Shown piece by piece: positions 13,001 through 22,334 of a stretch of DNA of 64,000 nt. Source of the DNA: a candidate division WOR-3 bacterium UBA1063. Its GTDB lineage: Bacteria > Hydrothermota > Hydrothermia > UBA1063. The translations under genes and the position numbers were made by a program. The notes below the pieces were generated by a model that was not told where the DNA came from, did not search any database, and saw only the letters and a program-made list of their open reading frames with translations. The stretch's first letter is position 1; every line of letters starts with the position of its first letter. The stretch covers positions 27,434-91,433 of the forward strand of contig DCDE01000004.1 in NCBI GenBank assembly GCA_002316275.1, given 5' to 3'.

Positions 13001-13948
13001 TTACCAGATATTCAGGATTTGCCCTGATTCAAGAGTTATTCGTAGAAAGCTCCTGTGCTGCGAATCATCAAATTCGTATTTAACACCCTTAACATCTCCA
13101 ATATCAGTTTTATTTCCCAAAAAGTTACCATCTATAGGCCGATACTTTCTATCACCGCTATCATGCTGTATGCTTGAGATCTCAGTATCTAAAAGGAAAG
13201 TAACATTGGAATATACTGATGTTACACTAACGCTTCTTGTAGAATCGCGGTGGCATTCCACTGCCACTCGAACGGTATCACCATAAATCTGGTCTTCCGC
13301 CATCCTTACTACACCACCATCAATTGACCCGACAAAAGTAGGATCCATACTTTCGATTCCAGCAGAGAGGTATTGCGCAGCAACATCACTGGTCCGGGAA
13401 TTCAAAGATAGCACCGTCCCATCAATTTCAAAGTTTGAAGTATATAGTCTCTCTTGGTTCTTCTTGAGGTCTAAACTACCACTTATAATATGAAGATATT
13501 GTGAGATTTCCCTATAGCTATGTACACTCAAAATAAGATCCAACGTATCCGCACCATTAAGCCACTTCAAAGAGATTAGGGAATCGGATGGATAAATTTT
13601 GACCCAGCCTGAATCACTATAAAGATATTCACCAAATGAACTATAGCTATTAATGTACAAGTTCCCATAAACATAAACCGTGTTGATAAAAGGTGTAGGG
13701 TCTGTCGGATCTTGGACCCAAAATGCTTTATCAATACCGACAAGAATCGGTATTCCCTCGGGCTCGGGGAGCTGTGCAAGTTGAATCACTACCTCGTTGG
13801 AATCTAAATCCTTGTACAATTCACTGAGTTCCTGTACTGCTAACACTGCTTCATCTTCGTAAAGAAACGATATTTTTTTACAGGACAGAGAAATACACAA
13901 TACAACCAAAATTAATAGAATGCTACACTTCTTCATCTTCACCTCCAC
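13001..13948 (-). CDS. Hypothetical secreted protein
   Basis: 315 aa. N-terminal signal-like 'MKKCSILLILVVLCISLSC'. No recognisable domain. Lies 41 nt downstream of the cyclase-STAND gene on the same strand. Confidence 0.4.
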   Translation of the reverse strand: MEVKMKKCSILLILVVLCISLSCKKISFLYEDEAVLAVQELSELYKDLDSNEVVIQLAQLPEPEGIPILVGIDKAFWVQDPTDPTPFINTVYVYGNLYINSYSSFGEYLYSDSGWVKIYPSDSLISLKWLNGADTLDLILSVHSYREISQYLHIISGSLDLKKNQERLYTSNFEIDGTVLSLNSRTSDVAAQYLSAGIESMDPTFVGSIDGGVVRMAEDQIYGDTVRVAVECHRDSTRSVSVTSVYSNVTFLLDTEISSIQHDSGDRKYRPIDGNFLGNKTDIGDVKGVKYEFDDSQHRSFLRITLESGQILNIW

Positions 13949-13989: not shown

Positions 13990-16900
13990 TTAGTTAAAAG
14001 ATTGCAAAACGGCAAGCAACAAATGTGCACCGTGCTCCCTAAGCATACCAAACAGATATACGCGGCCCCTTGGATCCGAAATCCTTGGGAAGTTATCAAT
14101 ATCTATAATGAGTCTTAGGTTTTCTTCTTTAAGGAGCGAAGATAGGGAACTCATCCTTTCGCCACCAAGTATTAGGAATAACGTTAGCCAAGACAATCTT
14201 AGTTCTGGCGAGGATCTCTTGACACTATCAAACCATGCCGACAGCGTTTCGAGATCAGGATATGTAATCTGCATCCCGCAAAGGTACTGCACCAAACCTG
14301 CATTTATAAGACTCTCCACATTTCTCAACCCCGAATCCGAAAGTATCACAAATGCTCGGGATTCAATGATCATCTGCTTCGCACCCTCATAATCACCCAA
14401 CAACGCCTTTATTGCTGCTTGGTACACTCGTACTTGAAAGATCCTGCTCTTATTATCCAAACGGAAAAATATCTCTTCAACCCTTTTAAACACCTCTAAT
14501 GCAACGTTAAAATCCATCTTGCAGTATGCTAATACACCTTTGAGTAAATATAAAATCCCGAGCTTCGAAGGAGGTAAACCAGGAGATAATAAAAGTACTT
14601 CATCGAGAAGGTCTGCTACCTTCTCATAACCGTATAACTCAAGATAGATTCCAGCCAGGTTAATTGTTGTCTCGGCAAGATAGTCTGCTAATTTCAAATC
14701 TCTAAAAATTTTTCTTGCTTCTTCAAAGTGATGTCTCGCCTCATCGAGCTGCTGACGGTTTAAAAACACCCTTCCAAGATTATTCAGAGTGACCGCCAGT
14801 AAAAATCTACTTCCCGTCTTTTTCACAATGTCAAGAGCCTTTACCAAATGCTCCTCGGCAACTTCTAATTCCCATTTACTTAGGTAAATCTGACTCACAT
14901 TGATCAAGATTTTTGCTTGAGACACAAACTCCCCAATTTCTTCAAAAATCAATTTTGCCCTATCATAATAGGAAATTGCCTCACTAAGATTACCATTTAT
15001 TTGTTCTATATTGCCGAGAAGGTTAAAATCAGCGCCGAGAGTTTTCAAAGCATCACGTGAGCTAAGACCAAAACTTTCAATAGTTTTGATACTTAAATGG
15101 CCATAAGTAGCTGCATCTTTTAAATCATCCATCCTCCAGTATACCCACGCTTTCTTGTAGTTTGCATACGCTTTGATTTCTGGATCAGAGGATTCAGATG
15201 CACGGCAAAGATATCGAAAGGCTTCATCAAACTTTGATAACTTTTCATATATGCTAGACATCAATATCTCGTATCTCAGCTGAAGTATCGATCCATCTCC
15301 AAGAGCAGAAACATTTGAACTTAGGATATCCAGAGCGTCTTCGTACTCACCCATTCCTTCAAGGCATTGGGCAATTTTATAAGCCACCTCAGGATTTACC
15401 TTTAGGCTCCGGTAAGCTTGTAAAGCATAACTATAAAAACCCTTTGAAAACGCAACATCGCCAGCCATTTCGTAGTATTCAGTAGCCTTTTCGCCATTAT
15501 TAGATTTCTCAAAGTGTGACGCAGTCAGGAAGAGTAGATGCTCATCTTTTCCCTCTAACTTTTCAAACTCCACTGCCACAATACTATGGAGCCTCTCTTT
15601 CTCTTTTCTCGTTAAAAGGGAATATATAGCATCCTTTAGTAGTTCGTTTCTAAAAATGTATTCATAGTCTCCTGGGATATATGTGAATCCCTGAGAGATG
15701 ATAAATCCTTCCTTTTCTAACATATTTAGACTACTTTCTACACTTCTTTGTAAAACTTTTGCGAGAATATTCTTCCAGAAGTGATTTCCAATCACCGAGG
15801 CAGCTTTTATAAGATCTTTTTCATCCTCAGGAAGTCTATCTACAAACGCAACGAGTACGCTATTTATGCTTTCAGGCATTGAGAAATCTTCCGCCTTTAT
15901 CCTAAGAGGTCCATAAACAAGTAGGTCCCTCTCCCTAAGATAATAAACAAGTTCTTCGATAAAATATGGGTTACCGCGAGTTTTGGCCAAGAGCATGCTC
16001 AAAAATTCATCAGAAATTTCATCTGAATTACTTTGTAATACCGAGCGGCAGACCTCTTTTACGAATCCTTCTCCCATTCCTGTAAGTTCGATACTATAAT
16101 CAAAGTCAACCTCTTCTAAAAGCTCCCTCGAAATAAAAATAAAAATCAATGAACCAGCCCTTATTTCTTCTTTTAATCCTATAAAAAAGTTTTTCGACTC
16201 CCTGTCTACAAACTGAGCATCATCAAGAAATACAACTACACTTCCAAGGTCGCCAAGAGCTGCTTCAAAAATTCTCTGCATCTCCGTTTTAATTTCCCTA
16301 AGTACTTCAGTAGAAAAAAACAGATCTCCTTTAATAACACTTAAAATCTTTATAGATACCAATTCTGCATCATTCTTTGAGAAACCGTGCTTATTTTCAA
16401 GGTAATGGGCTACACTGGTAATGTCCAGTACTCCTGAAATTACTCGCCCTAAAATATCCTGCAAAATTTTCTCAACAGCATACATAGGAGTCTGTTTTAT
16501 GGAATCACACCTCAGATAAAAAGTCTTAATATCCGGAAATTCCGTTAGAATTCCACCCTTTAGTTCTGCACAAAAACGTGTCTTACCAATCCCAGCTTCA
16601 CCTACAACCCCTCCGATATGCACACCTGGTCTCTCGACACTACCCTTTATCCAGCCTAAAATACTCTCCATCTCCGCCTCTCGACCGGAGAAAGGGGTCT
16701 TGAATCTTCCTTGAATGAAGAACTCACTTTCCATAGATTTTTCACCCAGAACCTCAAAAAGATGGATTGGTTCTTCTCTACCCTTAACCCTTACGAGCCC
16801 AATTTCTTTGAAATAGAAATCCTGGAACGTCAGATTGACAAGGGATTCTGTGACATATATTTTCCCGGGTCCAGCAATCTCTTCTATTCTCTGAGCAACA

Positions 16901-17301
16901 TTCACAGTATCACCAAGCACCGTAGGTTTTTCTCCCGCAATTGAAGACCATAAAACCTCACCAGTGTTCACACCAATCCTCATTTTTATATTGACCCTTT
17001 CAATAGAATTCAGCTTTTCAAGGTATTTCTGCATGGCAATTGAAGTCAAAATAGCCCTTCTCGCATCATCACCGTAAGCAACTGGTGCACCAAATACTGC
17101 CATTACAGCATCCCCTATAAATTTGTCCAGATAACCACCATTTCTCTCTATAATTTCTTTAAACTCTTTGAAAATCTTATCAATTAATTCTTGAAGGTCC
17201 TCAGGATCAAGAAATTCGGAAAGGCTGGTAAAACCCTTAATATCACCAAAGATTACAGTTACACTTCTCCTTTCAGGCTTTATCAACTTGCTTGTATACA
17301 T
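13990..17301 (-). CDS. Class III adenylyl cyclase domain, STAND/AAA_16 ATPase, TPR-repeat signalling protein
   Basis: N-terminal 'VTVIFGDIKGFTSLSE', 'DKFIGDAVMAVFGAP' and 'GDTVNVAQRIEE' form a class III cyclase core. Walker A 'GEAGIGKT' and Walker B 'VVVFLDDAQ' are intact. About 600 C-terminal residues are TPR-like repeats. Confidence 0.8.
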   Translation of the reverse strand: MYTSKLIKPERRSVTVIFGDIKGFTSLSEFLDPEDLQELIDKIFKEFKEIIERNGGYLDKFIGDAVMAVFGAPVAYGDDARRAILTSIAMQKYLEKLNSIERVNIKMRIGVNTGEVLWSSIAGEKPTVLGDTVNVAQRIEEIAGPGKIYVTESLVNLTFQDFYFKEIGLVRVKGREEPIHLFEVLGEKSMESEFFIQGRFKTPFSGREAEMESILGWIKGSVERPGVHIGGVVGEAGIGKTRFCAELKGGILTEFPDIKTFYLRCDSIKQTPMYAVEKILQDILGRVISGVLDITSVAHYLENKHGFSKNDAELVSIKILSVIKGDLFFSTEVLREIKTEMQRIFEAALGDLGSVVVFLDDAQFVDRESKNFFIGLKEEIRAGSLIFIFISRELLEEVDFDYSIELTGMGEGFVKEVCRSVLQSNSDEISDEFLSMLLAKTRGNPYFIEELVYYLRERDLLVYGPLRIKAEDFSMPESINSVLVAFVDRLPEDEKDLIKAASVIGNHFWKNILAKVLQRSVESSLNMLEKEGFIISQGFTYIPGDYEYIFRNELLKDAIYSLLTRKEKERLHSIVAVEFEKLEGKDEHLLFLTASHFEKSNNGEKATEYYEMAGDVAFSKGFYSYALQAYRSLKVNPEVAYKIAQCLEGMGEYEDALDILSSNVSALGDGSILQLRYEILMSSIYEKLSKFDEAFRYLCRASESSDPEIKAYANYKKAWVYWRMDDLKDAATYGHLSIKTIESFGLSSRDALKTLGADFNLLGNIEQINGNLSEAISYYDRAKLIFEEIGEFVSQAKILINVSQIYLSKWELEVAEEHLVKALDIVKKTGSRFLLAVTLNNLGRVFLNRQQLDEARHHFEEARKIFRDLKLADYLAETTINLAGIYLELYGYEKVADLLDEVLLLSPGLPPSKLGILYLLKGVLAYCKMDFNVALEVFKRVEEIFFRLDNKSRIFQVRVYQAAIKALLGDYEGAKQMIIESRAFVILSDSGLRNVESLINAGLVQYLCGMQITYPDLETLSAWFDSVKRSSPELRLSWLTLFLILGGERMSSLSSLLKEENLRLIIDIDNFPRISDPRGRVYLFGMLREHGAHLLLAVLQSFN

Positions 17302-17324
17302 AGGATAAATTATTATATAGGATT

Positions 17325-17684
17325 ATGTGGGTTCTGTGGGGGATTTTAGTAGGCCTCATAGCTGGCGTGGTGAGTGGTTTTTTTGGTATCGGTGGGGCAA
17401 CCATTTTGACTCCTATATTAATATATGTTTTCAAAATGGGCCAGCATATGGCTCAAGGAACTTCGTTAGCCGCACTTCTATTACCTGTTGGGCTTTTAGC
17501 GTTTCTTCAATATTATAAAGCTGGTAACTCTGATATAAAGTTAGGCTTGTGCATTGCAGTAGGACTGTTCTTGGGTGGGTATTTTGGTGGTATGTTTGCT
17601 CAAAAGGTAAATGCCTTAGCTCTTCGGAAAGCTTTTGCAGTATATCTTATAATAGTTGGAATCCAGCTCTTTTTCAAAAAATAG
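17325..17684 (+). CDS. TauE/SafE (TSUP) family membrane protein, half-size (4 TM)
   Basis: 119 aa. 'GFFGIGGATILTPILI' is the TauE/SafE repeat signature, present in one copy instead of the usual two. Confidence 0.5.
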   Translation: MWVLWGILVGLIAGVVSGFFGIGGATILTPILIYVFKMGQHMAQGTSLAALLLPVGLLAFLQYYKAGNSDIKLGLCIAVGLFLGGYFGGMFAQKVNALALRKAFAVYLIIVGIQLFFKK

Positions 17685-18219
17685 TAAGATCTTGAAATTT
17701 GTTCCTGAACTTATAAAATAGCTTCCCGCTGGTATAACCAACCAATGCTCCAAAAATTACATCTGTGGGCCAGTGCCTCCTAAGATAAACTCTTGAAAGT
17801 GACACCCCGCTTGCCCACAGATACAAAGGCAGGCTATATGTAGGGTGCATAGCGCTGTAGTAAGAGGCGACATAAAATGCAACAGATGCATGCCCTGATG
17901 GAAAAGAGGAATTACTACGCGTGGTGTAGAAACCATCAGGCCTATCTCTGTTCGTCACGTACTTCAGCGATTGAACTAAGAGGGATGTGGTACCAAGTCC
18001 AAGGGTATAGGACCTCATTGAGCCTGCATCGAATGGGTCTTTAAACGACCAATAGAGTAAAGAACAAAAAAGTATAGGCTCACTTTCCGCACTTTTACTC
18101 ATTGTCTCAAACACTACATCACAGAAAGGTGAACGAAGGCCTCCAGCTACAATTTCCAAGCCTATAGAATCAGCGCTCTGGATTGAGAATAACAGCAAAA
18201 ACTCTAGAATGAATTTCAC
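17674..18219 (-). CDS. PAP2 family (type 2 phosphatidic acid phosphatase-like) membrane phosphatase
   Basis: Three PAP2 motifs present: 'KYVTNRDRP', 'PSGH', 'SRVYLRRHWPTD'. Confidence 0.7.
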   Translation of the reverse strand: MKFILEFLLLFSIQSADSIGLEIVAGGLRSPFCDVVFETMSKSAESEPILFCSLLYWSFKDPFDAGSMRSYTLGLGTTSLLVQSLKYVTNRDRPDGFYTTRSNSSFPSGHASVAFYVASYYSAMHPTYSLPLYLWASGVSLSRVYLRRHWPTDVIFGALVGYTSGKLFYKFRNKFQDLTIF

Positions 18220-18479
18220 AATTCAAGCCTCCTTTTAACTTCTTCAAGGGTAAAATCTTCGAGGATTTCTACAAGTTTATTTCGTGACTTAATGCCAGAT
18301 ACAACCCTAACTTTACTCTCAGGAATATCCATTTTCTTACACAGAAACCTTATTAGATCTTCGTTAGCCTTCCCCTGCACAGGATCTTCTTTTACCATAA
18401 CAACGATCTTATCACCTAATAACTTCACACCATATCCCTTCGATGACGGCTCTACTTTTATTCGCATGATTAAACTCAT
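18216..18479 (-). CDS. DUF167/YggU family protein
   Basis: 87 aa. 'IKVEPSSKGYGVKLLGDKIVVMVKEDPVQGKANEDL...KVRVVSGIKSRNKLVEI' matches the YggU pattern. Overlaps the PAP2 start. Confidence 0.6.
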   Translation of the reverse strand: MSLIMRIKVEPSSKGYGVKLLGDKIVVMVKEDPVQGKANEDLIRFLCKKMDIPESKVRVVSGIKSRNKLVEILEDFTLEEVKRRLEL

Positions 18480-18589
18480 TTATATATTATAATGTGCCAA
18501 CAGCGAATTCTGGCCCAGGGAACTATCATCAGTCTAGCTTTTTAAACCATTTGCATTTTAACAAAGTCCCTTTTAAAATTATATTTGAG

Positions 18590-21500
18590 ATGAACGAAAT
18601 TCTTAAAGAACCTTTAACTCAACTTTATCACCATAACTATTTTATTATCCGTATTGAAGAAGAAGTATACAGAGCAAAGAGAAAAGGCCTTGGGCTCAGC
18701 CTGATCTTTATAGATATAGATTTTTTCAAGATGATAAACGATAACTTCGGGCATCAGGTAGGAGATGAAGTCCTCAAACAATTTTCAATGGATTTGAAAG
18801 ACACAGTGAGGGAATCCGATCTGATATTTAGGTATGGTGGAGATGAATTCACGATTATTTTACCCGAAGCCTCTATAGATGACGCAATTAAAATATCTCA
18901 GAGAATCAAAGGAACCGTTGAAAAACAAGGCTATGGCCCTTCGGGAAGCTTGAGAATCTCGTTGAGCGTAGGCATATCACAGTTCCCCATCGATAGTGTT
19001 AATCCGGCTGATTTGATACAAAAGGCCGATGAAAGAAACCTTATTAGCAAAAGAACTGGAAGAGGTAAAATAGTATATAAAGACAATGTAGTGGAAGAAT
19101 CGCAAACTATTTCTCTCTCTTCTGTGAGGATGGTCGGAAGAGAAAAAGAAATTAAGAGTTTTACGCAACTTTTAACTGAATTTGCCAACTCCGATCGCAG
19201 GTTTATTGCCATCTTGAATGGTGTGAAAGGGAGCGGAATTACAAGACTTATTGAGGAAATTTCGAACATTGCGGCTATTGTTAGAATCAAACCGATCAAT
19301 GTTACCCTCGTAGAGAAAGATCTTACAGACCGACTTGCGCTGGTAAGATCCATATTGAAGGAACTTTTGAAAGACGAAAAGGAAGAAGTCACTGGAGAAT
19401 ATGCAAATATTTTCGTTTATCCCCAAAAGGAAACACCCCGCGAAGATTTAACAGTAATTAGTAACGAACAAAAGTTAATTGATACTGTTTTAGAATTACT
19501 TTCTAAAAGGTCAAAAAATCAAAAAATACTTCTTACCATCAATAATGGGCAACTTATTTCTAAAGAAAGCATGCCTTTGCTCGTTCAGATATTACAATCC
19601 AGTAAGGCAAAAGATGCCTCTCTTATCATAGCTGAAAAAGGAAGAAATGGTTTTGAAAAGGAACTATCGTCACTTTCCGAGGTAATACATTATTTTGAAG
19701 TGTTACCACTAACAAGAGAAGAGGTAAAAACCCTACTGTGGCAAATATTGAGATCGGAGCCAGATGAAAACTTCCTGGATTGGATAATGGCACAAACCGC
19801 AGGGCGACCCTTGTACATTGATAAGATTTTAAACATCCTACTACTCTCAAATAAGCTTTCCCCAGCTGAAAACCACTGGATTTTGAGTGACGATTATTAT
19901 ATAGGAGTAGAAAATACCTTCCTACCGCTGGTTGAAGAGATATCAAGCCTCACACCGCAGGAGAGGGACGTGCTTGAAGTCTGTGCAGTATACAACATCA
20001 GTTTCTCTTGCTCGGTAATTGCGGCACTTACGGAGCTACCCGTTACTGAAATAGACGAGATTTTTAATAGCCTCTGTACAAAAGGATATTTAGAAGAGAT
20101 TATCCCATATAATCTCTATAGATTCCCCAACCAACTGATAAAAGAAATAGTCTATTTTCAAATCCCAAAAGAAAAACGCACAAAAATGCATTTTAAAATT
20201 GCACGCATGCTTGACAATAACCCTGAAGAAATATCAAGACTTAACCCTCAGATCCTATATGAACACTACGTAAATGGCGGTATGGAACATAAAGCAATTC
20301 CCCACATTGAGTCAATGATTAGAAATGCAATTAAAAAGAAGGAATTTAAAAAGGCGACTGAACTCATTCAGAGAATTTTTGAAATCGAAGATAATAAACT
20401 TCAAGTTTCTGAGCAGATCGGCCTTTTAAGGGAACTTGGAATGTGTTTAAAAAATGTTGGAGACTTTGACTCAAGTTTTGCAAAGTTGAAACAAGCACTT
20501 GAACTTGCACAAAAGCACGGAGAAAAATATGAAGAAGCCCTCGTGAGGCTTGAAATGACGAGGATCCAATACACTAACCGAGATGAACATGAATTTCTTA
20601 CAAACATTGAACAAATTCAACAGATTGGAAGTCAACTGAATGACCACAGAATCCTTGCAAAAGCTCTTGTGGATAAAGCTTTATATTATTATGATTTTGA
20701 AAAAAAACCAACTAAAGCTATACTGACTCTCGATGAAGCTCTGGATCTTTTAAAAGAAGAAGAAGACCATGAATTGCTTACAAGAATCTATGGGAATTTA
20801 GGGAATTTTTATGCGCACCTAAAACAATATCAGAAGGCAAAGGAAAACTTTGAGATTGCCCTTTATCATGCAAGAATCTGCAACAATCCGGATTACATCT
20901 GCACAATAATGCTCAACTACGGTGTAATCCAATCTATTTTGGAGGATTTAGAAAACAGCAGGAAAACTTTAGAAAAAACCCTGGAATTCGCGAAGAGAGA
21001 GAATATAATGTACCTGATGCCCCATCTATATTCAAATCTGGCAATGATATATGTCAACTACGGAGAGTATTCAATTGCAATCAAATACATGGAAAAAACT
21101 ATAGATTACGCAAAGGAAATGGACCTCAAAGCAGATGTCACTACTTATGAAACATACCTTTACGGAATCAGGTCATATCTGGGTGACCAAGAGTACTACA
21201 CTTCAAAACTTGAGGAAATTGTTGAAAAAGAGTTACATAACACCGAGGCTTGGGAAAGGGCTAATTGCTACCTTATAAATAACTATTCTTTCCTGGGGAA
21301 ATTATCAAACCTGGAAAAAATCTATAAGAATATGTCCAATTTTAGGAACCTTATGCTAAAAAATGCTGCCGAGATTACATTGTACGAAAACATTATCATC
21401 TTCTCAAAAGAAAGTAAAAAACTTATAGACTTCATTAAACAGAAGGAAAAAGAATCAATTACCAAAGCCGATTCCATAGGCAAAGTCAACTCTGGCACAG

Positions 21501-21934
21501 TACTTTACTTATATCATTCTATTACTGGCGAACCCACAGACGTAACACTTGATGAAGTACTTGAGCTCTCAAAGAATGCAATGGATATAAAATCATATAT
21601 CGACGTACTTTTGTATGATCAAATCCTCGGGACACTAAACCCAAAACTCTTAGAAGAACTCAAAAACCAATCAATACACTTTAACCTTAAACAGAAGCTT
21701 CTCTTTTACGTCGTGGAGCTCAGGGTAGAACTAGCAAGTGGGGAAACAGAAAACGCTCATGAAAAAATCGAAGAGCTTGAAAGGAAACTTATAGATCATA
21801 AAGCGATACTCGTATTAACGTTTCTCTACAGGATGGGAATCAACTTCTTTAAAGAGGTAGATCCTCAGTTTGCCACATTACTGGGAGAAAAACTAAACCT
21901 TCTCCTCACGGATGCATTCAGCTCGTACTTTTAA
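18590..21934 (+). CDS. GGDEF diguanylate cyclase domain, degenerate STAND/AAA_16 ATPase, TPR-repeat signalling protein
   Basis: 'RESDLIFRYGGDEF' has an intact A-site and an RxxD I-site. The AAA_16-like region has 'GVKGSGIT' (Walker A Lys replaced by Ile) and 'ILLTINNGQ' (Walker B DD replaced by NN). Long TPR-like C-terminus. First ATG at 18590 chosen over the ORF-track start at 18494. Confidence 0.8.
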   Translation: MNEILKEPLTQLYHHNYFIIRIEEEVYRAKRKGLGLSLIFIDIDFFKMINDNFGHQVGDEVLKQFSMDLKDTVRESDLIFRYGGDEFTIILPEASIDDAIKISQRIKGTVEKQGYGPSGSLRISLSVGISQFPIDSVNPADLIQKADERNLISKRTGRGKIVYKDNVVEESQTISLSSVRMVGREKEIKSFTQLLTEFANSDRRFIAILNGVKGSGITRLIEEISNIAAIVRIKPINVTLVEKDLTDRLALVRSILKELLKDEKEEVTGEYANIFVYPQKETPREDLTVISNEQKLIDTVLELLSKRSKNQKILLTINNGQLISKESMPLLVQILQSSKAKDASLIIAEKGRNGFEKELSSLSEVIHYFEVLPLTREEVKTLLWQILRSEPDENFLDWIMAQTAGRPLYIDKILNILLLSNKLSPAENHWILSDDYYIGVENTFLPLVEEISSLTPQERDVLEVCAVYNISFSCSVIAALTELPVTEIDEIFNSLCTKGYLEEIIPYNLYRFPNQLIKEIVYFQIPKEKRTKMHFKIARMLDNNPEEISRLNPQILYEHYVNGGMEHKAIPHIESMIRNAIKKKEFKKATELIQRIFEIEDNKLQVSEQIGLLRELGMCLKNVGDFDSSFAKLKQALELAQKHGEKYEEALVRLEMTRIQYTNRDEHEFLTNIEQIQQIGSQLNDHRILAKALVDKALYYYDFEKKPTKAILTLDEALDLLKEEEDHELLTRIYGNLGNFYAHLKQYQKAKENFEIALYHARICNNPDYICTIMLNYGVIQSILEDLENSRKTLEKTLEFAKRENIMYLMPHLYSNLAMIYVNYGEYSIAIKYMEKTIDYAKEMDLKADVTTYETYLYGIRSYLGDQEYYTSKLEEIVEKELHNTEAWERANCYLINNYSFLGKLSNLEKIYKNMSNFRNLMLKNAAEITLYENIIIFSKESKKLIDFIKQKEKESITKADSIGKVNSGTVLYLYHSITGEPTDVTLDEVLELSKNAMDIKSYIDVLLYDQILGTLNPKLLEELKNQSIHFNLKQKLLFYVVELRVELASGETENAHEKIEELERKLIDHKAILVLTFLYRMGINFFKEVDPQFATLLGEKLNLLLTDAFSSYF

Positions 21935-22334
21935 CCTCAAATCTGAAAAACAGATTTCTCAGCTTTTTATCAAACACTCCGAGGAGTAAAAAGTATAACA
22001 TCATAAGTAAAAATCCCACAATTGCCTTGACAATCTCATTCAATTTAAAAAATTGACCGAGATAATAGCCCAGAATAAACATAGCAATTGGTATTATGAA
22101 AATTAATGCCGACGACAGCACAATTCCCCATGTACTCTCTTCAATAGTAACAACGTCAGCGACCTTGAGATTATTTCCGCTAACCTCAACCACATCCTCA
22201 CCTTTATTTTTCATACCCATAGTACAAAATTTCGAGAGGGAACAGGACGAGCACGAACTCTCATCTCTTAATACCTTAACGAGGTATCTCCCCTCTCCGA
22301 CTTCAGAAAGAACAATTCCTTTTATTTCTGCCAT
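21918..22334 (-). CDS. rseC: RseC/MucC family protein (Rnf-associated, SoxR-reducing-system-like)
   Basis: 138 aa. N-terminal 'CSSCSLSKFC' cysteine cluster followed by two TM helices. Lies immediately downstream of rnfB. Confidence 0.55.
   Translation of the reverse strand: MAEIKGIVLSEVGEGRYLVKVLRDESSCSSCSLSKFCTMGMKNKGEDVVEVSGNNLKVADVVTIEESTWGIVLSSALIFIIPIAMFILGYYLGQFFKLNEIVKAIVGFLLMMLYFLLLGVFDKKLRNLFFRFEVKSTS

Follow-up and report, generated by a model that had tools for sequence, protein, structure and literature searches.

Fusions of a nucleotide cyclase to an AAA ATPase and tetratricopeptide (TPR) repeats that lack a helix-turn-helix (HTH) domain have been described in Leptospira interrogans (LA_4008) and Myxococcus xanthus (MXAN_4545) (PMC3789758). 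Here, we analyze two proteins of related design, encoded by open reading frames (ORFs) A and B in a 64-kb stretch of a Candidatus Hydrothermia (WOR-3 group) genome, which as a whole is referred to below as the window. The two genes are divergent and 1.3 kb apart, with three small genes between them (Table 1). ORF A, which is 100% identical to the NCBI entry 'adenylate/guanylate cyclase domain-containing protein [Candidatus Hydrothermia bacterium]' (P0001), is of the LA_4008/MXAN_4545 type in its domain order, its size class (approximately 1,000-1,300 aa), its intact Walker A motif, and its lack of a DNA-binding domain. LA_4008, however, has two tandem cyclase domains and has been discussed as a host-directed factor, whereas ORF A, from a free-living thermophile lineage, has only one such domain. 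The Mycobacterium tuberculosis proteins Rv0386, Rv1358, and Rv2488c likewise combine an N-terminal class III cyclase with a STAND-type ATPase and helical repeats, but they end in a LuxR-type HTH domain, for which neither A nor B gave a match. In addition, Rv0386 is a class IIIc cyclase with unusual substrate residues, whereas in A the substrate residues form a K/T pair, as in class IIIb-like adenylyl cyclases.

For the body that follows the cyclase, the closest described systems are MalT and Pyrococcus PH0952 (Protein Data Bank, PDB, entry 6MFV), which have the same series of nucleotide-binding domain (NBD), helical domain (HD), winged-helix domain (WHD), arm, and TPR array. PH0952 was the best structural match of both A and B, and both proteins also match the TPR_MalT profile. 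The TPR-STAND switch worked out for MalT and PH0952 alternates between a closed, ADP-bound state and an open, ATP-bound multimer, with autoinhibition by the arm and TPR array (PMC6468293). Two differences stand out. The effector of MalT/PH0952 is a DNA-binding domain, whereas that of A and B is an enzyme that needs dimerization, and the MalT-type switch depends on a Walker A lysine that is missing from B.

Our preferred explanation, to which we give a probability of roughly 0.6, is that A and B are housekeeping signal-transduction enzymes with MalT/PH0952-like STAND-TPR bodies, in which the cyclases would be gated by ligand-induced oligomerization. A is a further member of a known and common architecture, and B is a rare variant in which a GGDEF head is joined to a dead P-loop. 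The new detail is the replacement of the Walker A lysine by isoleucine or leucine in every B ortholog, while outgroup GGDEF-STAND proteins keep the lysine.

A preliminary description of this DNA had placed a class III cyclase head on A and a GGDEF head on B, each followed by a central STAND module and a C-terminal TPR array, on either side of a three-gene islet. Both ORFs and the islet were recovered as described, Pfam assigned the same two heads, and the domain order held for both proteins in Pfam, in hhalign comparisons, and in fold matches to 6MFV. In ORF A, the cyclase head (Guanylate_cyc, PF00211) matched at aa 11-178 with E = 5e-31 (108.2 bits against a cut-off of 21.9), and TPR_12 and TPR_MalT matched at approximately aa 600-900. 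The six catalytic residues D20, D64, K60, T127, N134, and R138 are all invariant in a 15-sequence alignment. At the substrate positions K60 and T127, CyaB (3R5G), an adenylyl cyclase, likewise has K and T, whereas Cya2 (2W01), a guanylyl cyclase, has E and G, and the top fold matches of the head were CyaB and CyaC (target-normalised template modelling scores, or TM-scores, of 0.80-0.87). Because both the substrate residues and the fold of the head point to CyaB-type enzymes, A is most simply read as a class IIIb-like adenylyl cyclase, with cyclic AMP (cAMP) as its predicted product and synthesis by a putative dimer.

The central module of A carries canonical Walker motifs, with GEAGIGKT fitting the Walker A pattern GxxxxGK[ST] and FLDDAQ fitting the Walker B pattern hhhhD[DE]. 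In the same 15-sequence alignment G234, G237, G239, K240, D361, and R392 are invariant, as are G443, N444, P445, and H572 in the helical and winged-helix domains, and GxxGxGK[ST] is found in 117 of the 120 top homologs. Both proteins also matched TIGR03903 (TOMM kinase/cyclase fusion), A with 140.7 bits and B with 56.3, against a cut-off of 705.75, and so neither is a member of this family; the match to A is limited to the cyclase-ATPase part of the model. The lack of an HTH domain had been noted as setting the two proteins apart. Indeed, none of the domains that had been reported as missing (HTH, nuclease, TIR, or Sir2) was matched in either protein at E <= 0.01 in Pfam, and this includes GerE, Trans_reg_C, and BTAD, the HTH modules of MalT/LAL/AfsR-type regulators. 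The C-termini of A and B are helical repeats in the structural models, and neither protein is therefore a regulator of that type. However, the HTH-less form is predominant rather than new, in that cyclase-ATPase-TPR proteins without an HTH domain number more than 5,700 homologs at E <= 1e-10, GerE or BTAD is listed in 0 of the top 120, and the Joint Genome Institute (JGI) annotates many homologs of A as 'class 3 adenylate cyclase/predicted ATPase/TPR'.

In ORF B, GGDEF (PF00990) matched the head at aa 8-159 with E = 3.7e-37 (128 bits against a cut-off of 23.8), the NCBIfam model TIGR00254 gave 150 bits against a cut-off of 37.4, and TPR_12 and TPR_MalT matches were found as well. Residues D42, D44, K47, N50, D51, R74, D77, and G83-F87 are invariant among orthologs. 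The window protein and 7/7 orthologs share RESDLIFRYGGDEF, the segment that holds the I-site and the GGDEF motif, and the pattern R..D.{5}GGDEF is found in 8/8. B is predicted to make cyclic di-GMP (c-di-GMP).

AAA_16 matched B at aa 181-341 with 29.8 bits, under the Pfam cut-off of 32.6, and most B orthologs have no precomputed AAA_16 match. Sequence searches of the PDB with ORF A and with a profile of the B family returned cyclase, GGDEF, and TPR chains only, and nothing for the nucleotide-binding oligomerization domain (NOD); the STAND assignment of B therefore needed structure prediction and Foldseek. The AlphaFold models reached a mean predicted local distance difference test (pLDDT) score of 86.3 for A and 85.4 for B, both have a helical-repeat region of approximately 500-550 residues, and 6MFV was the best PDB fold match of each (A, E = 3.3e-15 over 798 columns; B, E = 1.4e-12 over 723 columns), which removes the concern that the central modules might not be STAND modules at all.

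Homology between the two bodies was also found by direct comparison. BLASTP aligned A and B from Walker B onwards with 20% identity over 543 aa (E = 1e-7), and hhalign, run on the two ortholog alignments, gave a probability of 100% and E = 1.4e-73 over 739 columns, spanning the post-catalytic linker, the NBD, the HD-WHD region, and the arm, and reaching into the TPR array. The homology thus extends well outside the repeats, as had been anticipated. The GxP motifs and WHD histidines of the two proteins (G443-P445 and H572 in A; G405-P407 and H534 in B) are paired in this alignment. Taken together with the shared best match to 6MFV, the hhalign homology indicates, at the level of profiles and predicted structures, that both proteins have a MalT/PH0952-like STAND body made of NBD-HD-WHD, an arm, and a repeat sensor.

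Homology of the bodies does not make A and B close relatives. When B was searched exhaustively with its GGDEF head removed, 13,929 cluster representatives were matched at E <= 1e-3, of which only five reached E <= 1e-30. Outside its own cluster, the top four matches are three N-terminal GGDEF-STAND-TPR proteins (P0241, with 256 bits, P0242, and P0244) and one tandem AAA_16-TPR protein without a head (P0243); P0245, P0246, and P0252 rank close behind, and 20 GGDEF-STAND-TPR representatives are among the top 148 matches. These GGDEF-AAA_16-TPR proteins are the nearest body relatives of B and share its GGDEF motif and I-site, and their annotations go no further than 'diguanylate cyclase' or 'tetratricopeptide repeat protein'; our literature search found no paper describing the family. 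In a neighbor-joining tree of the NOD region only, the B clade joined P0241 in 99/100 bootstraps, inside a GGDEF-headed group, and the A clade fell inside a cyclase-headed group, with A and B as sisters in 0/100 bootstraps. A recent duplicate with a swapped head was accordingly rejected on three counts: a body-only phmmer search, the exhaustive body-only search, and the NOD-only tree. The preliminary description had called A and B paralogous and had given them the same ATPase-plus-TPR body. The bodies are homologous, but they are not one duplicated body with exchanged heads, and the NTPase of B is degenerate. Because the tree places B with GGDEF-headed and A with cyclase-headed STAND proteins, head and body have long stayed together as units, in two distinct subfamilies.

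Related AAA_16-TPR bodies are also found behind a Ser/Thr kinase head, ahead of a C-terminal SARP/BTAD module (P0258, BTAD/Trans_reg_C), in tandem, or headless. Since the body is found with a kinase, with SARP/BTAD, or with no head, it is a modular effector platform. Many body relatives of approximately 2,200-2,400 aa (P0248, P0249, P0251, P0261, P0263, P0264, P0270, and others) have two cyclase domains approximately 1,150 residues apart, as if the entire cyclase-STAND-TPR unit had been duplicated in tandem in a single polypeptide.

The nucleotide-binding site of B is degenerate. hhalign pairs GVKGSGITR of B with GEAGIGKTR of A, and INNG of B with LDDA of A, so that isoleucine stands in place of the Walker A lysine and two asparagines in place of the Walker B aspartates. 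The P-loop follows G[VLM][KR]GxG[IL][TS]R in 8/8 orthologs, with the same result in the four GTDB species representatives, whereas GxxGxGK[ST] is kept in 27/27 outgroup GGDEF-STAND-TPR proteins (7 distant and 20 further); in other words, the lysine is lost in 8/8 orthologs and in 0/27 outgroups. At Walker B, the orthologs have IDNG and the window copy has INNG. With neither Walker motif in canonical form (GVKGSGIT, TINNGQ), B is predicted to have a STAND fold yet no canonical NTPase. The P-loop has, however, kept its glycines, its Thr/Ser, and the arginine that follows, and the GxP motif and the WHD histidine are retained too, with G405 and P407 invariant among orthologs and His534 aligned with His572 of A. 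In addition, position 3 of the P-loop is Lys or Arg in 8/8 P-loop-dead orthologs, whereas it is A, I, V, T, or G in canonical relatives. The nearest outgroup, P0241, has GDRGCGKT, with Arg at position 3 plus the canonical lysine, and therefore the basic residue at position 3 arose before the lysine was lost. Judging from these alignments, it could be a relocated or compensating basic residue.

Is the STAND module of B, then, still a working part? One could suppose that it is a relic that serves only as an inert spacer or constitutive dimerizer, so that B would be a constitutive diguanylate cyclase controlled by expression level and its I-site, with the TPR array used for localization or scaffolding and not as a sensor. 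A Walker A lysine missing from every ortholog, a Walker B aspartate missing from the window copy, the AAA_16 score under threshold, the orthologs without a precomputed AAA_16 match, and the strict conservation of the RxxD I-site would all fit such an enzyme. The pattern of conservation fits it less well. Within-clade identities for B and A, respectively, are 0.72 and 0.72 in the head, 0.43 and 0.38 in the NBD, 0.61 and 0.55 in HD-WHD, 0.62 and 0.56 in the arm and TPR region, and 0.37 and 0.33 at the C-terminus. The NBD, HD-WHD, and TPR regions of B are thus conserved as well as those of A, and the kept P-loop glycines, Thr/Ser, Arg, GxP, and WHD His, together with the fixed position-3 Lys/Arg, would be unexpected in a pure spacer. 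We, therefore, regard an inert module as possible but rather unlikely. That the NBD of B is decaying was rejected, because its per-domain identity profile is nearly equal to that of A; with the GGDEF motif, I-site, GxP, and WHD His kept in all orthologs as well, B is, by these comparisons, under constraint and not in decay.

The genomic setting of A and B is highly conserved. The complete block is syntenic in seven related loci (L001, L002, L003, and L010-L013), with 47-64% identity for A (64% in L001, 48% in L003, and 47% in L002) and 46-60% for B. The gene order in L001-L003 is Rnf operon, RseC, B, DUF167, PAP2, (TauE), A, a 311-aa lipoprotein, and a 4HBT thioesterase. In L001 and L002, these are followed by succinyl-CoA ligase, QRPTase, Asp dehydrogenase, TldD, and ApbE, and the L003 contig ends just past the thioesterase. 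Among 185,579 GTDB species representatives scanned, a full-length B ortholog occurs in four only, and in 4/4 of these the block is complete. In the window, the block is flanked by Rnf, NAD-biosynthesis/tricarboxylic acid (TCA) cycle, and ribosomal operons. The block had been singled out as the only accessory-looking part of the window, an impression that does not survive comparison, since it is syntenic in every related Hydrothermia genome examined. From gene content and order it is best seen as core genome, vertically inherited in a housekeeping setting. Distant homologs of A (P0014, P0018, P0012, and P0011) and of B (P0129) also sit among housekeeping genes, each of them singly.

One outgroup locus is informative about the pair. 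A positional ortholog of B, P0394 (of the P0241 cluster), is encoded at 10001-13405 of L007, a contig of JGI 3300033149 from a 'Candidatus Hydrothermota' metagenome that represents a deeper lineage. It occupies the position of B, divergent from DUF167-PAP2 and convergent with RseC-Rnf, and it has an intact Walker A motif (GDRGCGKT) and passes the AAA_16 threshold. No cyclase-STAND gene lies beside it, where S15 and PNPase are found instead, and a cyclase-STAND homolog from a sister sample lies in an unrelated genomic context. L007 shows the ancestral state of the locus. Since its positional ortholog of B has no A next to it and the sister-sample homolog of A lies elsewhere, the adjacency of A and B is derived within the clade of the window and coincides with the loss of the Walker A lysine, a suggestive pattern that amounts to one event.

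Plant paired NLRs such as RGA5/RGA4 and RRS1/RPS4 are encoded by divergent STAND genes, of which one has a degenerate or dispensable P-loop and the other a functional one. By analogy, A and B might form a sensor/helper pair, in which P-loop-dead B and P-loop-competent A would hetero-oligomerize through their NODs and cAMP and c-di-GMP would be set jointly or reciprocally. It is in keeping with this idea that the two genes are divergent and 1.3 kb apart in every genome that has a P-loop-dead B (the window, L001-L003, and L010-L013), that the B of L007 has an intact P-loop and no neighboring A while the sister-sample A lies elsewhere in its genome, so that lysine loss coincides with adjacency to A, that the NODs of A and B are homologous, and that the NBD of B is as constrained as that of A, which suggests a structural or interaction role. 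The coincidence, however, arose just once in evolution, in one small clade, and carries zero statistical weight; the whole 20-kb neighborhood is syntenic, so that adjacency may be merely inherited; the NODs are only approximately 16-20% identical and belong to different subfamilies; and three unrelated genes, with no shared promoter, lie between A and B. On balance, we consider such a pair improbable. It is tempting to go further and to speculate that the locus is a bacterial counterpart of paired NLRs, in which B lost its Walker A lysine beside A and came to depend on A for assembly, so that one sensing event would feed into both cAMP and c-di-GMP, jointly or antagonistically. The coincidence of P-loop loss with adjacency, the constrained NBD of B, and the Lys/Arg fixed at P-loop position 3 are what prompt this thought, and we hold it to be a shade more doubtful still. 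The likeness to plant paired NLRs is one of analogy only, as A and B are not family-level homologs of them and have three unrelated genes between them.

The order of N-terminal effector, STAND module, and C-terminal TPR array also resembles that of antiviral STAND (Avs) proteins, and the class III cyclase of A shares its fold with PycC of Pycsar systems. These likenesses, and a G+C content a little lower over B than in the window (0.36-0.37 against approximately 0.41), raise the question of whether A and B are Avs-like or Pycsar-like, with TPR arrays that would recognize proteins of phages and set off an immune signal in the form of a cyclic nucleotide burst. A PADLOC scan of A, B, the three islet genes, and the lipoprotein gene downstream of A gave no Avs model match at E <= 0.01 for either protein. 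A matched PycC models at the level of the cyclase domain (best E = 7.3e-19), a TPR model, and, marginally, PDC-S39 (a candidate-system model, E = 1.3e-4), and B matched a TPR model only. The PycC matches reach 66 bits, against 108 for the generic Pfam cyclase, and thus reflect a shared fold only, and K60 and T127 of A match adenylyl cyclases. No domain of a cell-killing effector (nuclease, protease, TIR, Sir2, or transmembrane) was found in A or B with Pfam, and no gene for a cyclic-nucleotide-activated effector lies nearby in any locus examined; the neighbors (lipoprotein, 4HBT thioesterase, TauE, PAP2, and DUF167) include no Pycsar-type effector and gave no PADLOC match.

Location and conservation point the same way. 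Unlike a defense island, the block is syntenic core genome beside Rnf, NAD-biosynthesis, and ribosomal operons, and orthologs occur in each of the clade's four GTDB species, a distribution that is not patchy. The sensor regions are better conserved than the NBD within each clade (TPR 56-62%, NBD 38-43%), which is the opposite of what is expected of an arms-race receptor. With no Avs match, no effector or partner gene, a housekeeping setting, and conserved sensors, the defense reading was rejected and the analogy to Avs drawn in the preliminary description was given up; we judge an antiviral role to be highly improbable.

What remains is to consider how A and B might work as ordinary signaling enzymes. 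In class III cyclases, the active site lies at the dimer interface, and in diguanylate cyclases two substrate-loaded GGDEF domains must meet. It is reasonable to extend a MalT/NLR-like logic to both proteins, with occupancy of the sensor leading to messenger synthesis. At rest, A would be a closed, ADP-bound monomer, kept shut by its arm and TPR array. An endogenous ligand, perhaps a metabolite or a protein, would bind the conserved TPR/arm sensor, upon which the NOD would open, exchange ADP for ATP, and form a multimer. The multimer would pair the N-terminal cyclase domains, thereby creating inter-subunit active sites for the synthesis of cAMP. B might use the same induced proximity, with two GTP-loaded GGDEF domains brought together to make c-di-GMP and the RxxD I-site providing product inhibition. 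Its nucleotide step, however, is presumably bypassed, and oligomerization would be nucleotide-independent, constitutive, or partner-dependent. Because the Walker A lysine has been lost, together with the Walker B aspartates in this genome, B would not have the canonical ATP-dependent switch, and most likely its NOD is a nucleotide-independent or permanently locked oligomerization scaffold under the control of the TPR sensor.

Several points weigh against ligand-gated oligomerization of A and B. The AlphaFold models were built on shallow alignments (13-15 sequences), and their inter-domain geometry is uncertain, with predicted template modelling (pTM) scores of 0.52-0.65. The AAA_16 match of A (aa 204-388) is, at 32.8 bits, barely over the Pfam cut-off. 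Without a Walker A lysine, B may not self-multimerize, which makes B the weakest case for the mechanism. Finally, no paper found in our literature search puts to the test the control of a fused cyclase by a STAND module.

Table 1. Positions in the 64-kb window of ORFs A and B, their domains and motifs, and the genes between them.
Feature	Residues or length	Coordinates	Strand	Basis or detail
ORF A: predicted class III adenylyl cyclase + STAND (AAA_16) NTPase + TPR	1103 aa	13990..17301	-	Pfam, AlphaFold
A cyclase homology domain	aa 11-178	16768..17271	-	D20 + D64 metal, K60 + T127 substrate, N134 + R138 transition state
A nucleotide-binding domain	aa 204-395	16117..16692	-	Walker A, Walker B, sensor-1-like R392
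A Walker A, GEAGIGKT	aa 234-241	16579-16602	-	
A Walker B, VVVFLDDAQ	aa 355-363	16213-16239	-	
A helical + winged-helix domains	aa 396-585	15547..16116	-	GNP aa 443-445, His572 (RLHSIVA)
A arm + TPR-like helical repeats	aa 586-1103	13993..15546	-	TPR_12, TPR_MalT; helical hairpins throughout model
TauE/SafE-family membrane protein, half-size (islet gene 1)	119 aa	17325..17684	+	Pfam TauE, E 2.7e-21
PAP2-family phosphatase (islet gene 2)	181 aa	17674..18219	-	Pfam PAP2, E 1.6e-21
DUF167/YggU-family protein (islet gene 3)	87 aa	18216..18479	-	Pfam DUF167, E 5.7e-18
ORF B: predicted GGDEF diguanylate cyclase + STAND-fold module with degenerate P-loop + TPR	1114 aa	18590..21934	+	Pfam, NCBIfam, AlphaFold
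B GGDEF domain	aa 8-159	18611..19066	+	GGDEF aa 83-87 intact; RESD I-site aa 74-77, five residues upstream
B degenerate nucleotide-binding domain	aa 181-350	19130..19639	+	Alignment, hhalign, motif census
B P-loop, GVKGSGITR	aa 211-219	19220-19246	+	Ile replaces Walker A Lys
B Walker B, ILLTINNGQ	aa 313-321	19526-19552	+	Asn-Asn replaces Asp-Asp
B helical + winged-helix domains	aa 351-545	19640..20224	+	G405/P407 (AGRPLYI), His534 (KMHFKIA)
B arm + TPR-like helical repeats	aa 546-1114	20225..21931	+	TPR_12, TPR_MalT; helical hairpins, pLDDT mostly >85

ORF B is taken to start at ATG 18590, as the N-termini of all orthologs begin at the same position in the alignment, and an upstream GTG (18494) was rejected for this reason. 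The PAP2 and DUF167 genes are syntenic in all related loci, L007 included, and the DUF167 gene is divergent from ORF B with a spacer of 110 bp. The TauE/SafE gene is divergent from ORF A, with 23 bp between the two starts, and only positions 127-237 of the profile, that is, the C-terminal half of the Pfam model, were matched. In L003 and L012, the gene is absent or was not called. Because its size is kept at 118-119 aa in four other loci (L001, L002, L010, and L013), it encodes a true half-size member of the family rather than a fragment.

Downstream of ORF A, on the same strand and 41 bp away, lies a gene for a lipoprotein-type protein of 315 aa (13001-13948, minus strand; signal LCISLSC) without a Pfam or NCBIfam match. 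Its position is kept in L001-L003, where the protein has 310-311 aa, and it may be co-transcribed with ORF A. The 3' end of ORF B overlaps a convergent RseC/MucC-like gene, which closes the Rnf operon, by 17 bp (21918-21934), and the corresponding overlaps are 29 bp in L001, 23 in L002, 17 in L003, and 4 in L007. Over 12.8-22.5 kb, promoter-like sites (28, with 25.7 expected) and terminator-like sites (8, with 6.3 expected) were about as frequent as in chance sequence, and Rfam gave no match across 12-24 kb. The spacer between DUF167 and ORF B, aligned over seven loci, has an AT-rich, TATAAT-like stretch only, with no conserved operator and no CRP-like site.

G+C is 0.36-0.38 over positions 18000-22000, against 0.40-0.44 in most of the window, and the ORF B protein is rich in Ile, Lys, and Asn. 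Given that synteny is conserved, the low G+C over ORF B, which is the one sign of an accessory region in the block, reflects composition and not recent acquisition. A gene for a GAF-HDOD-HD_5 protein (HD-GYP-like, a candidate c-di-GMP phosphodiesterase) lies approximately 10 kb from A in L001 (22977-23321) and L002 (22859-23324); in the window, this position is taken by tRNA genes and purE/purC instead. Positions 62-2278 of the window (plus strand) encode a 738-aa protein whose C-terminal part is of the PQQ/beta-propeller type and whose N-terminal part gave a weak match to the CdvA-like coiled-coil model (E = 1.2e-4, below cut-off).

For annotation, A and B are two ordinary housekeeping signaling enzymes, and the window holds no defense island around them. 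Thousands of cyclase-STAND-TPR proteins exist, and our literature search found no mechanistic study of any of them. Apoptosomes, inflammasomes, plant resistosomes, and bacterial Avs systems are the most familiar cases of induced proximity by STAND proteins, and in these it leads to cell death or transcription. If the mechanism proposed here holds, the same principle would be applied to ordinary second-messenger synthesis. The P-loop-dead GGDEF clade and its intact-P-loop positional ortholog, moreover, provide a natural comparison for how a STAND protein functions without nucleotide switching.

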